The notes under the pieces: model-generated | Databases searched by the model: none | What the model was told of the DNA's origin: nothing | Seen by the model: only the letters and a program-made list of their open reading frames with translations | Assembly: GCA_965216945.1 (NCBI GenBank) | Contig: CBDCGU010000003.1 | Location: forward strand, 3,868-67,867 | Reading direction: 5' to 3' | Length of the DNA stretch: 64,000 nucleotides | DNA from: Acidimicrobiia bacterium | GTDB taxonomy: Bacteria; Actinomycetota; Acidimicrobiia; Spongiisociales; UBA5794 | Program-made: the position numbers and the translations under genes | Shown: positions 48,688 through 53,317 of the stretch, one piece after another | How positions within the stretch are numbered: position 1 is the stretch's first letter | Layout: every line of letters starts with the position of its first letter

Positions 48688-49641
48688 TCATGCCGATCGG
48701 GCTCGTCGCAGCACGACGTCGATCGGAGTCGCCTCCATGTCGCCGAGCTCCTGGACGTACTCGTAGCCGAAGCGTCCCTTGATGCACAGGTGGCCGTTGG
48801 TCACCGAGTGATCGATCGGTGAGGTGACCTTGACGATCCGGTTGTCTTGCACGTGCAGGTCCAGATTGCACCCGACACCGCAGTAGGAGCACACGGTCCG
48901 GGTCACCGTCTGCTCCTCCTCGTTCCACATGTCCGCTTCACGCAGCTCGTACTCCGATCGGAACATCAATGCCCCGGTCGGGCACACCCCGATGCAGTTG
49001 CCACAGAACACACAGGCAGAATCGGTCAGGCCCGTGTCGAACTCTGTGGAGATACGGGCGTCGAACCCACGGCCGGCAACACCGAGCGCAAAGGTGTTCT
49101 GCGCCTCGGTCCCGCATGCCTGGACACACTTGTAACAGAGGATGCATTTGGAGTAGTCGCGCACATAGAGCTCGTTGTCGATCTTCACCGGCTGCGCGAC
49201 GGAGGCGGCCTGCTCGCCGTCTGGCGGAGCGTGATGACCGGGATGGCGGTGGTCGCGATCGTCCTGGGCGGGCTGTGCCGGGCCAAACCGATCAGGATCG
49301 GCTCCGTAGTCGTCGATCCACGCCTTGGTCGATGCATCGACGAGATCCATGTCGACGGAGGAGCCGAGCAGTTCGAAGACGAGCTTGCGGGAATGCCGCA
49401 CCCGCTCGCTGTCGGTGTGCACCACCATTCCCTCCTCGACGGGTCGGGAGCAGGACGGCACCAGCGCCCGTGAGCCCTCCACCTCGACCACACAGACCCG
49501 GCACACGTTGACCGGCGTCAGGTTGTCGAGGTAGCAGAGCGTGGGCTGCTCGCGGCCCATGCTCCGGCAGGCGTCGAGGATGGTCGAGCCCTCGGGCACG
49601 GCGGTCCCCGCCCCGTCGATGGTGACATGGACTTCCGTCAT
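48688..49641 (-). CDS. Formate dehydrogenase Fe-S subunit (NuoG/HylA-like): [2Fe-2S] ferredoxin + 2x[4Fe-4S] + Molybdop_Fe4S4 domain, lacking the molybdopterin catalytic domain
   Basis: ATG 49641 (MTEVHVTIDGAG...), overlapping the nuoEF-like stop (ATGA). 2Fe-2S region CYLDNLTPVNVCRVCVVEV. Ferredoxin CxxCxxCxxxCP motifs. C-terminal CSYCGVGCNLDLHVQDNRIVKVTSPIDHSVTNGHLCIKGRFGYEYV equals the N-terminal Fe4S4 domain of FdhF-type enzymes. Confidence 0.75.
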   Translation of the reverse strand: MTEVHVTIDGAGTAVPEGSTILDACRSMGREQPTLCYLDNLTPVNVCRVCVVEVEGSRALVPSCSRPVEEGMVVHTDSERVRHSRKLVFELLGSSVDMDLVDASTKAWIDDYGADPDRFGPAQPAQDDRDHRHPGHHAPPDGEQAASVAQPVKIDNELYVRDYSKCILCYKCVQACGTEAQNTFALGVAGRGFDARISTEFDTGLTDSACVFCGNCIGVCPTGALMFRSEYELREADMWNEEEQTVTRTVCSYCGVGCNLDLHVQDNRIVKVTSPIDHSVTNGHLCIKGRFGYEYVQELGDMEATPIDVVLRRARSA

Positions 49642-51424: not shown

Positions 51425-53317
51425 CTAGGCCACCGTTTCGATGCGCACTGCGGTGGCTTTGAACTCTGCGGTACCCGACTTCGGGTCCCACACGTCGATC
51501 GTGAGCTCGTTGACGTCGGCTTCGTCGGGGAAGTGGAAGGCCATGAACGCAAGCCCGGGGCGAAGCGACTCGTGGAACCATACGGGTACGTCGATGCTGC
51601 CTCGCCGCGATGTCACTCGGACGATGTCCCCTTCGGTCACGCCGAGGGTCGCTCCGTCCTCGGGTGCGACCTCGATGATGCCACCGTGGCGAATCGGCGA
51701 TCGGTAGCGGCCGGACTGAACGCCGGTGTTGTACGAGTCGAGCCGGCGGCCGGTCGTGAGGCGGATGGGGAAGTCGTCGCTCAGCTCATCGACCGGAGGC
51801 ACCCACTCGGTCGGTATGAACGGTGCGGGATCTCGTGGCATCGGATCTTCCCACAGCCACCCATGGAGGTACTGGGTTCCGGGATGACTCTCGTCGGGAC
51901 ATGGCCATTGCAGCCCGCCCAGCTCTTCGAGGCGGCGGTACGACATCCCGCCGTGCATCGGTGACAGGCTGCGACATTCGTCCCACACCTCCTCGGCCGT
52001 CGGGATGCCCCAGCCGACCCCGAGCCGTTCTGCGAGCAGGCTGATGATCTCGAGGTCGTCCTTGGCATCTCCCGGCGGGTCGAGTGCCTTGCGAACGCGC
52101 TGCACCCGTCGCTCGGACGACGTCACGGTTCCCTCGCTCTCCGCCCAGCCGGCGGCAGCAGGGAGGACCACGTCGGCCATCTCGGCGGTCTTGGTGAGGA
52201 ACATGTCCTGCACGATGATGAAGTCGAGGCCGTCGAGGATCTTGCGGATGTGCCCTACGTCGGCCTCCGACTGTGCCGGGTTCTCGCCGATGCAATACAG
52301 CGCGTTGATCTCGCCGCGCTCCATGGCTTCGAACATGAGCGAGATGTGGAGCCCGTTCCGCGGCGGGATGGGATGCCCCCAGAGAGCCTCGAACTTGCCG
52401 CGGATCTCGGCATCTTCGACGTTCTGGAACCCGGGGAGCTTGTTGGGGAGCGCCCCCATGTCCCCGCCGCCTTGCACGTTGTTCTGGCCGCGGATCGGAA
52501 CGAGCCCTGATCCGTAACGTCCGACGTGTCCTGTGAGCATCGCCAGGTTGATGAGCGCCAGGACGTTGTCGGTGGCGTTGTGATGCTCGGTGATCCCCAG
52601 CGTCCAGCAGATCTGTGCGGAGCCTGCGGTCGCGTAGGCATGGGCCATCTCCTTGATGGCCGCAGCCGGCACACCGGTGACCTGCTCGGCCCGGTGCAAC
52701 GTCCACTCGTCGACCGTCGTGCGATACGCCTCGTAGCCAGAGGTGGAGTGCGCGATGAACTCCTCGTTCTGCAGCCCGGCGTCGATGATCTCCCGACCGA
52801 CGGCATTGGCCAGGGCGATGTCCGACCCGACATCCAGCCCGAGCCACATCTCGGCCCAGGCCGACGAGGTCGTGCGCCGAGGATCGACCGCAAACAACCT
52901 CGCACCGTTACGCACACCCTTGAGAAGGTGGTGAAAGAAGATCGGGTGCGCTTCGCGCGCGTTGGATCCCCACAGCAAGATGACGTCTGTGGTCTCGATC
53001 TCCTCGTAGGAGGAGGTGCCTCCTCCTGCTCCCAGCACTGCCGCCAGACCGGCGACGGAGGGAGCGTGTCAGGTGCGGTTGCACGAGTCGATGTTGTTCG
53101 AGCCCATGGCAATCCGGGAGAACTTCTGTGCGAGGAAGTTCATCTCGTTCGTCGCCTTCGAGCACGAGAACATTCCGTAGGACTGGCCGTCGTGCCGCCG
53201 CAATCCCGTCGCTGCGGCATCGAGCGCCTCGTCCCACGACGCGGCCACCAGGTCACCCTTCCGCCGCACCAGCGGGGTGGTCAACCGTCCACGCTGCATT
53301 CCGTCACCTCCTTCCAC
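51425..53317 (-). CDS. fdhA: Formate dehydrogenase catalytic (molybdopterin) subunit, selenocysteine-containing (TGA at 53069-53071 read as Sec)
   Basis: ORFs 53069..53317 and 51425..53038 share one frame and are separated by a single TGA. The joined translation ...FSRIAMGSNNIDSCNRT-U-HAPSVAGLAAVLGAGGGTSSYEEIETTDVILLWGSNAREAHPIFFHH aligns with E. coli FdhF ...GTNNVDCCARV-U-HGPSVAGLHQSVGNGAMSNAINEIDNTDLVFVFGYNPADSHPIVANH. The downstream sequence is a full MopB formate-dehydrogenase domain (VRGQNNVQGGGDMGALPNKLPGFQ...). The N-terminal Fe4S4 domain is absent from this gene. Confidence 0.8.
53040..53056 (-). promoter_or_regulatory. SECIS-like hairpin downstream of the fdhA UGA (GUCGCC-GGUCU-GGCGGC)
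   Basis: mRNA UGA CACGCUCCCUCC GUCGCC GGUCU GGCGGC: a 6-bp stem begins 12 nt after the UGA. The apical loop GGUCU is identical to the GGUC(U) loop of the E. coli fdhF SECIS. Confidence 0.5.

Follow-up and report, generated by a model that had tools for sequence, protein, structure and literature searches.

Gene content and layout of the cassette

The stretch of DNA described here, referred to as the window (64,000 nt; positions 3,868–67,867 of the forward strand of contig CBDCGU010000003.1, assembly GCA_965216945.1), belongs to an Acidimicrobiia bacterium with a genome of 67% G+C, the window itself ranging from 65 to 71%. On its reverse strand, a formate-tetrahydrofolate ligase gene (fhs) is followed by three closely packed genes that together appear to specify a formate dehydrogenase (FDH). 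The first encodes a catalytic subunit (CAT), the second a NuoE-NuoF fusion flavoprotein (EF), and the third an iron-sulfur subunit (FES). Their coordinates, and those of the other features discussed below, are collected in Table 1. The alpha subunit is divided between CAT and FES, at opposite ends of the cassette.

By Pfam search, CAT carries the domains Molybdopterin (PF00384, 5e-67) and Molydop_binding (PF01568, 1.7e-26) but no Fe4S4 domain. Its predicted active site consists of a selenocysteine (Sec77, see below), His78 and the conserved Arg of the motif PIRGQNNVQG. FES has the domains Fer2_4 (2.9e-20) and Fer4_Nqo3/Fer4, and ends in a Molybdop_Fe4S4 domain, so named in Pfam. The clusters predicted for it are a [2Fe-2S] (C36, C47, C50, C64), two ferredoxin-type [4Fe-4S], and a C-terminal [4Fe-4S] known as FS0. 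All 16 ligand Cys residues of these four clusters are invariant across the 82 family members over which FES conservation was scored, and the conserved Lys of the C-x-K-G motif is retained (HLCIKG). EF combines 2Fe-2S_thioredx, Complex1_51K, SLBB and NADH_4Fe-4S domains, corresponding to a thioredoxin-like [2Fe-2S] cluster, a site for flavin mononucleotide (FMN) and NADH (GRGGAAFP, GAYICGEE), the SLBB fold and an N3-type [4Fe-4S] cluster. Its residues 51–586 align to residues 47–556 of the beta chain of the Methylobacterium extorquens enzyme MeFDH1 (7e5z_B), spanning both NuoE and NuoF, and it also aligns to 6tg9_B and 6vw7_B. EF thus has the NuoF-like FMN/NADH site and N3 cluster of NAD+-dependent FDHs, together with the NuoE-like [2Fe-2S].

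CAT matches the model TIGR01591 (formate dehydrogenase subunit alpha) over positions 51–672 only, and its score of 650.8 bits stays below the equivalog cutoff of 666.25, a shortfall consistent with the lack of the first 50 model positions. Positions 1–50, exactly the part that CAT lacks, are matched by FES residues 249–298. Similarly, FdsA of Rhodobacter capsulatus (6tg9_A) is tiled by FES (residues 24–304, E=9e-50, the best PDB match of FES) and CAT (307–931); on other solved chains, CAT aligns to residues 63–708 of FdhF from the hydrogen-dependent CO2 reductase (HDCR) and 61–689 of E. coli FdhH. From the way FES and CAT tile both FdsA and the model, the cut separates the FS0 cluster domain precisely from the first domain that binds pterin, without loss or duplication of any part, and the two proteins are parts of one conventional alpha subunit, with the gene order permuted. 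CAT is therefore without the in-cis N-terminal FS0 domain of the TIGR01591 class, and the single continuous alpha chain of the FdsABG/MeFDH1 class is missing: FES ends after FS0, and CAT is encoded two genes upstream. Among the best 60 PDB matches, all solved chains covering the FS0 part of FES are 632–1178 residues long and have a molybdopterin-type domain following in cis. The permuted order would be the expected product of a tandem duplication of an alpha-EF operon in which the first alpha copy later lost its 5' third and the second lost everything 3' of FS0.

Much of this layout had been recognized in the initial annotation. Pfam searches agree with its account of a separate Fe-S gene (48688–49641) that encodes a 2Fe-2S, two 4Fe-4S and a Molybdop_Fe4S4 module, and with the nuoE-nuoF fusion upstream of that gene. 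They also bear out, together with inspection of the spacer, that the catalytic part is encoded first and lacks an Fe4S4 domain, while the gene positions and the tiling support the proposed order (catalytic, NuoE-NuoF, Fe-S module) and a split of the alpha chain after Fe4S4. The overlapping junctions are as described: in TAGTG (51427–51423) the GTG start of EF and the stop of CAT have one base in common, and in ATGA (49641–49638) the ATG of FES overlaps the stop of EF. Two details have changed. The catalytic gene, placed earlier at a GTG (53317), more likely starts at the ATG at 53299, which has GGAGGTGA just before it; and fhs does lie upstream, but its stop is 150 nt rather than 130 nt from this ATG. 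The 150-nt spacer is interrupted by an in-frame stop and is free of Cys motifs, so no Fe4S4 domain is hidden ahead of CAT.

Shine-Dalgarno sequences are weak or absent at EF and FES, where the starts overlap the preceding stops. The overlaps along CAT-EF-FES suggest that the electron-transfer subunits may be translationally coupled to the selenoprotein gene. The G+C content at third codon positions (GC3) is 0.81–0.83 in the three genes and 0.81–0.85 when fhs is included, matching neighboring genes and indicating a native codon bias. An Rfam search of the region 47–57 kb gave no riboswitch (e.g. for molybdenum cofactor or tetrahydrofolate) in the spacer between fhs and CAT, and promoter and terminator scans were uninformative at 67% G+C. 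Directly downstream of FES is a small gene for a DUF1971 (TehB N-terminal-like) protein (48396–48680, reverse strand). Its position is not conserved, as related loci have DUF402 or MFS genes there.

The in-frame TGA and the adjacent hairpin

Mechanical lists of open reading frames show CAT as two pieces of 82 and 537 aa, separated by an in-frame TGA (53071–53069) that the initial annotation overlooked. The codon falls at the position of the metal-ligating Sec or Cys. Every one of the 67 related loci whose sequence extends over it has TGA as the aligned triplet. The surrounding CNRT-U-HAPSV is invariant in the same number of loci, as is P[ILV]RGQNNVQG in 68, and the orthologue in GCA_035253845.1 is annotated by NCBI as a single product of 630 aa.

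Just 3' of the UGA is a hairpin resembling a selenocysteine insertion sequence (SECIS), GUCGCC-GGUCU-GGCGGC, with the upper stem GUCGCC/GGCGGC and the apical loop GGUCU. The SECIS of E. coli fdhF, with a GGUC(U) apical loop right after the UGA, is of the same style. Across 55 distinct aligned sequences, the loop is invariant and 99.7% of cells in the upper helix are paired, with compensatory changes from G-C to A-U in 16 sequences and from C-G to U-A in 6. These covarying changes are non-synonymous on both sides of the helix (VAGLAA, VTGLVA, VVGLAT, VVGLTT), and coordinated changes of this kind, which alter amino acids, would be hard to explain unless the RNA itself is under selection. Taken by itself, the fold energy is not significant (z = -1.16), so that support for the hairpin comes from the covariation. 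With an in-frame UGA at the catalytic Cys/Sec position and a SECIS hairpin immediately downstream, the arrangement is that of a bacterial selenoprotein gene, and we read the TGA as a selenocysteine codon.

Related loci and known enzymes

A protein search with FES gave 8000 matches, and the description is based on the best 120 of these, which are 314–392 aa long and 74–100% identical. Where they are named at all, it is as '2Fe-2S iron-sulfur cluster-binding protein', 'HndD' or 'YjgC', the latter two by JGI. A scan of one genome per species produced at least 599 candidate stretches, at least 562 of them confirmed; the best 80 were retained for locus analysis, to which further metagenome contigs were added, and the set includes independent short- and long-read assemblies. 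Most of the hosts are Acidimicrobiia, among them the sponge symbionts Ca. Spongiisociaceae and Ca. Poriferisocius. Others, at 64–70% identity, belong to the Acidobacteriota (Terriglobia, Thermoanaerobaculia, Ca. Versatilivorator), Gemmatimonadota, Pirellulaceae (Planctomycetota) and to metagenome-assembled genomes (MAGs) of Mycobacteriales. The cassette is thus shared by many uncultured bacteria and spread over at least five phyla in the 80 species-level genomes (best of at least 562), among them abundant sponge-symbiont and soil lineages.

All related loci with sufficient flank, among these best 80, have the order CAT-EF-FES on a single strand, and their catalytic sequences are 64–81% identical to that of the window (tblastn). 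FES is about 297–329 aa long and terminates after FS0 in all but two frameshifted loci. In 53 of the 82 loci the EF stop and FES start overlap by 4 or 8 nt, and in 39 of 53 the distance from CAT to EF is between -1 and +17 nt. An insertion of about 1.5 kb separates CAT from EF in three loci, and in one of them (L070) it codes for an SLT/SBP_bac_3 protein. Proteins in which EF and FES are fused (P0315, P0272 and similar) were considered as a two-gene variant and rejected: EF shifts frame in the loci concerned (L084, 6001–8682; L085, 6001–8391), and these are long-read errors. In both, fdhD is convergent and immediately downstream. Because the same gene order recurs in all related loci that are long enough, and in several bacterial groups, the split layout is a real, conserved arrangement and not an artefact. 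The comparison of gene order proposed earlier thus gave the same split throughout, with no single FdsA gene at orthologous loci.

The adjacency of fhs and FDH genes is also present in related loci, fhs preceding the cassette in most Acidimicrobiia loci but not in other phyla. In two Acidimicrobiia loci (L024 and L027; 2172–3314, reverse strand) fhs and the cassette are separated by a divergent second NuoF-like gene on the opposite strand, 37–38% identical to EF. Outside the Acidimicrobiia the cassette occurs without betaine genes, and no further conserved partner genes were found around it in the two distant-phylum loci L070 and L072. Conventional fused relatives, with the Fe-S arm and catalytic domains on one chain, appear only at about 40% identity or below; in one such family, which contains Sec, the alpha gene comes ahead of a NuoE-like gene and of accessory genes of the hydrogenase type.

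Among studied enzymes, the closest architecture is that of MeFDH1 and FdsABG. The tungsten enzyme MeFDH1 (FoDH1, Fdh1AB; 7E5Z, 7VW6) carries bis-pyranopterin guanine dinucleotide (bisPGD), three [4Fe-4S] and one [2Fe-2S] on its alpha chain, and FMN, [4Fe-4S] and [2Fe-2S] on its beta chain, which corresponds to FdsB plus FdsG (PMC10869683). This is identical to the set predicted here, neither enzyme having a His-ligated cluster, and the MeFDH1 beta chain is, like EF, a NuoE-NuoF fusion; MeFDH1 is an alpha-beta protomer and not a dimer of protomers (PMC10869683). The difference lies in the alpha subunit, since MeFDH1 has the Fe-S arm, FS0 and catalytic domains on one chain of 989–995 aa, while here they are on two proteins encoded at opposite ends of the operon. 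Furthermore, the present enzyme has Sec, unlike MeFDH1, and CAT is less similar to the MeFDH1 alpha chain than to FdhF-type enzymes. The FDHs of C. necator and R. capsulatus use Cys, in contrast to the Sec of the present enzyme.

FdsABG(D) of R. capsulatus and C. necator (6TG9/6TGA, 6VW7) shares with the present enzyme its ancestry in the N-module of complex I. The electron path in the R. capsulatus enzyme (RcFDH), from bisPGD through FS0, [4Fe-4S], [2Fe-2S] and N3 to FMN (PMC7171172), is the same as that predicted here. RcFDH differs in having FdsG and FdsB as separate chains, FdsA as one chain, an FdsD subunit, and a His-ligated cluster, A4, at the dimer interface (PMC7171172). The ligands of A4 are H117, C121, C124 and C130 of FdsA (PMC7171172). 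At these positions all 82 family members have V, L, a gap and D, P or E, so the FdsA-type A4 is absent throughout, and in FES it is replaced by a Cys-free segment. A4 of RcFDH sits at the interface between two FdsA chains, away from the main route of the electrons (PMC7171172), so its loss should not interrupt electron flow. Among 38 homologues the Cys-free segment has the invariant residues Y112, G120, R129, G135-H136-H137, P151 and K153 (consensus DRDxRHAGHH), and may, with its GHH motif, be a subunit interface or ligand site. An AlphaFold2 model of FES, made with 38 homologues, had a mean pLDDT (predicted local distance difference test score) of 52.9, which was too poor for a fold search, and was not used.

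Two other enzyme types share parts of this design. Stand-alone FdhF-type enzymes (E. coli FdhH, 1AA6; FdhF of the Thermoanaerobacter kivui HDCR, 7QV7; F420-dependent FdhA) are the top-scoring solved relatives of CAT and have the same Sec-His and Arg site. They differ in carrying FS0 at their own N-terminus (residues 1–60, ahead of the aligned region) and in the modules that receive their electrons, which are of the hydrogenase or F420 kind and not a NuoEF diaphorase. The HylABC-FdhF2 system of Gottschalkia acidurici (Bfu-type) has, as here, separate Fe-S, flavoprotein and catalytic polypeptides and a Sec-containing catalytic subunit. FdhF2 of the Hyl-type system keeps its own FS0/Fe4S4 domain, so the cut there lies before FS0. 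The Hyl/Bfu beta subunits have additional Fe-S domains and the GGPSG/Phe state (PMC7311640), which are absent in EF.

Metabolic setting and proposed function

Further genes for one-carbon (C1) metabolism lie near the cassette (Table 1). The region 33299–44879, for which the coordinates are those of stop-to-stop reading frames, would be a quaternary-amine demethylation island. Because the cassette neighbors methyl-releasing and corrinoid genes, a putative role of fhs and the FDH in disposing of C1 units from quaternary amines, by way of formyl-tetrahydrofolate (formyl-THF) and formate to CO2 and NADH, is supported. A module of this kind, ending methyl-group oxidation, was proposed in the initial annotation and fits the neighboring genes.

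Table 1. Positions of the cassette, its features and neighboring C1 genes within the window
Feature	Position	Strand	Basis or remarks
fhs, formate-tetrahydrofolate ligase	53450..55246	-	Pfam FTHFS E=1.8e-249
CAT, catalytic subunit, Mo/W-bisPGD domains only	51425..53299	-	624 aa/codons; Pfam, PDB, TIGR01591
In-frame TGA, read as Sec (U77)	53069..53071	-	translation CNRT*HAPSV; related loci
SECIS-like hairpin just 3' of UGA	53028..53065	-	fold and covariation
EF, NuoE-NuoF fusion	49638..51425	-	595 aa; Pfam, alignment to 7e5z_B
FES, Fe-S subunit	48688..49641	-	317 aa; Pfam, alignment to RcFdsA
Cys-free FES segment replacing His-ligated cluster A4	49162..49359	-	residues ~95-160; alignment to 6tg9_A
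FS0 (Molybdop_Fe4S4) domain, FES C-terminus, CSYCGVGC...HLCIKG	48751..48909	-	Pfam PF04879 E=3.8e-21; TIGR01591 1-50
Homocysteine S-methyltransferase, betaine-homocysteine methyltransferase (BHMT)-like	47363-48391
Electron transfer flavoprotein (ETF)	43158-44879	+
Dimethylglycine dehydrogenase (DMGDH)-like DAO/FAO_M/GCV_T enzyme	40571-43141	+
B12-binding corrinoid protein	39599-40534	-
DUF1638 protein	38959-39633	-
RACo corrinoid activase	35694-38261	-	stop-to-stop frame
MttB-family methyltransferase	34159-36297	-	stop-to-stop frame
Methylenetetrahydrofolate reductase (MTHFR)-like	33299-34165	-

Two observations concern methyl metabolism elsewhere in the window. At 47199–47278 (forward strand), some 85 nt ahead of the gene for homocysteine S-methyltransferase, is a full-length match to SAM_alpha (RF00521, SAM-II) that is below threshold (25.4 bits, where the gathering score is 36; E=0.00066 for the 301 nt searched). 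It contains the conserved core GAUUUGAC...GCUUGC...GCUAAAG and is probably a real S-adenosylmethionine (SAM) riboswitch in an Acidimicrobiia genome. A methyl-cycle cluster occupies 1–8308 (forward strand), with a SAM synthetase of PF01941 running off the window start (1–1539), a full-length MetH (3838–7347) and an MTHFR (frame 7055–8308). We take PF01941 to be the archaeal-type SAM synthetase, which would make it unusual in a bacterial genome.

The cassette most probably encodes a soluble, cytoplasmic, non-bifurcating NAD+-dependent FDH with Mo- or W-bisPGD, a member of the complex-I-N-module (FdsABG/MeFDH1) class built from three polypeptides, which would end C1 oxidation. In the proposed mechanism, formate would be oxidised at the Sec77/His78/Arg site of CAT and its electrons passed to FS0, which the C-terminus of FES would supply in trans by docking at the place of domain I in a normal alpha subunit. 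From FS0 they would travel along FES, by way of its two ferredoxin-type [4Fe-4S] clusters and its [2Fe-2S], and reach the N3-type [4Fe-4S] and FMN of EF, and the NuoE-NuoF fusion would reduce NAD+. The substrate would be formate freed by Fhs from 10-formyl-THF, so that the pathway would complete the oxidation of quaternary-amine methyl groups and yield ATP and NADH. NAD+ as the acceptor, and the direction of catalysis, are inferred.

Several points weigh against this proposal. Docking of FS0 in trans is deduced from homology only. CAT scores higher to stand-alone FdhF-type enzymes (467–513 bits, the highest to 7qv7_S) than to FdsA (422 bits), which makes a mosaic origin possible. Within the 64-kb window there are no sel genes, no tRNA, no genes of molybdenum cofactor biosynthesis and no fdhD, a maturation gene of the FdsC type (the search was not aimed at FdsD); fdhD adjoins the cassette in six related loci (L005, L014, L069, L083, L084, L085), and may sit elsewhere in the source genome. 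The host lineages are believed to be largely aerobic, which is odd beside the oxygen sensitivity of Sec-containing FDHs. Such enzymes are called rather oxygen-sensitive by Radon et al. (PMC7171172).

Other readings of the locus have to be set beside this one. An artefact of assembly, rearrangement or annotation, or a decaying pseudogene, with the true enzyme having a single alpha chain, would agree with the tendency of gene callers to break the catalytic gene at the TGA and with the false EF-FES fusions produced by frameshifts in long-read MAGs. It is effectively refuted by the recurrence of order and split point in the 80 species-level genomes and further contigs, from independent assemblies, and by conservation of the FES end after FS0, the ligand Cys, the catalytic residues and the start/stop overlaps, with native GC3. 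Very improbable, too, is that FES and EF serve another catalytic partner elsewhere as its diaphorase or hydrogenase-type module, with CAT working alone or with a different redox partner. The JGI labels on homologues, and the strong similarity of FES to the N-termini of HydA, HoxU and NuoG, would favor it, but FES is devoid of an H-cluster domain, and its last domain is an FS0 typical of Mo/W enzymes, precisely the one that CAT lacks. In all the loci examined the three genes are contiguous, and mostly they overlap; the window contains no paralogous partner. The earlier concern that the Fe-S protein might be a hydrogenase or NuoG paralogue with its partner elsewhere is ruled out by this fit between FES and the adjacent CAT.

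The initial annotation likened the system to bifurcating HylABC+FdhF2 complexes, in which formate oxidation would reduce NAD+ and ferredoxin together. The subunit set does recall HylA, HylB, HylC and FdhF2, in that the Fe-S protein and the catalytic subunit are separate and are joined by a flavoprotein of NuoF type and a NuoE-like module, and the best PDB matches of EF by score are the bifurcating HydB chains 7t2r_B and 7q4v_B. However, EF terminates 8 residues past the N3 cluster domain, without an extra C-terminal ferredoxin domain, whereas HydB chains run about 80 residues further. According to Losey et al. (PMC7311640), bifurcating beta subunits have extra Fe-S domains and GGPSG/Phe, and the Tyr/GGAAG state is non-bifurcating. 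All family members have the Tyr, in GAYICGEE, and GGAAG, never GGPSG, so EF shows neither mark of the Bfu/Hyl-type beta subunit; the cassette also contains no ferredoxin gene. Because there is no Fe-S domain beyond N3, the Tyr/GGAAG state is present, and the cofactor set is that of the non-bifurcating MeFDH1, the enzyme is read as a non-bifurcating formate:NAD+ oxidoreductase, and bifurcation is quite improbable. A reading that leaves the enzyme as it is and reverses its physiological direction, so that it would act as a CO2 reductase and supply Fhs with formate to be assimilated by a C1 route of the reductive glycine or Wood-Ljungdahl-like kind, is unlikely, if less remote. Metal FDHs of this class are described as reversible (PMC7171172). 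The adjacency of fhs and FDH genes would suit a reductive C1 route as well, as would the occurrence of the cassette without betaine genes in phyla beyond the Acidimicrobiia. Against this, the cassette lies beside methyl-releasing enzymes (MttB-family, DMGDH-like with ETF, BHMT-like) whose C1 units need disposal, NADH is a weak reductant for CO2, and no gene for glycine cleavage, reductase or carbon monoxide dehydrogenase/acetyl-CoA synthase was seen in the window.

With FS0 on a separate protein, this FDH adds a new structural variant to a known class of enzymes. Full-text literature searches and a 2026 review gave no account of an FDH split after FS0, although absence there is not proof, and we know of no other bisPGD enzyme that would take its proximal cluster from a partner subunit. 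Metal-dependent FDHs are central to C1 metabolism and are under development as catalysts for CO2 reduction. The FES-CAT family indicates that the FS0 domain can come from a partner subunit, where the solved matching chains keep it in cis. It also joins Sec with an NADH-type diaphorase in lineages believed to be largely aerobic, a combination unseen in studied enzymes, and so bears on the assumed oxygen sensitivity of Sec-containing FDHs and on the protective role proposed for the His-ligated cluster, which is lacking here. Owing to the misleading names given to FES homologues and the splitting of CAT at its TGA, formate oxidation by such organisms is easily missed in metabolic reconstructions.

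Whether the layout is adaptive is a separate matter. Supplying FS0 in trans, with the selenoprotein gene first, could be an adaptation instead of a neutral rearrangement, the order itself having arisen by tandem duplication and loss; this idea is tentative, and we consider it rather doubtful. Synthesis of EF and FES would then be gated by Sec decoding, such that under selenium limitation translation would stop at codon 77 and the whole enzyme would be switched off, and CAT could receive its bisPGD before being capped by FS0. If true, the arrangement would offer a template from nature on which CO2 reductases that are modular, contain Sec and are linked to NADH could be based.

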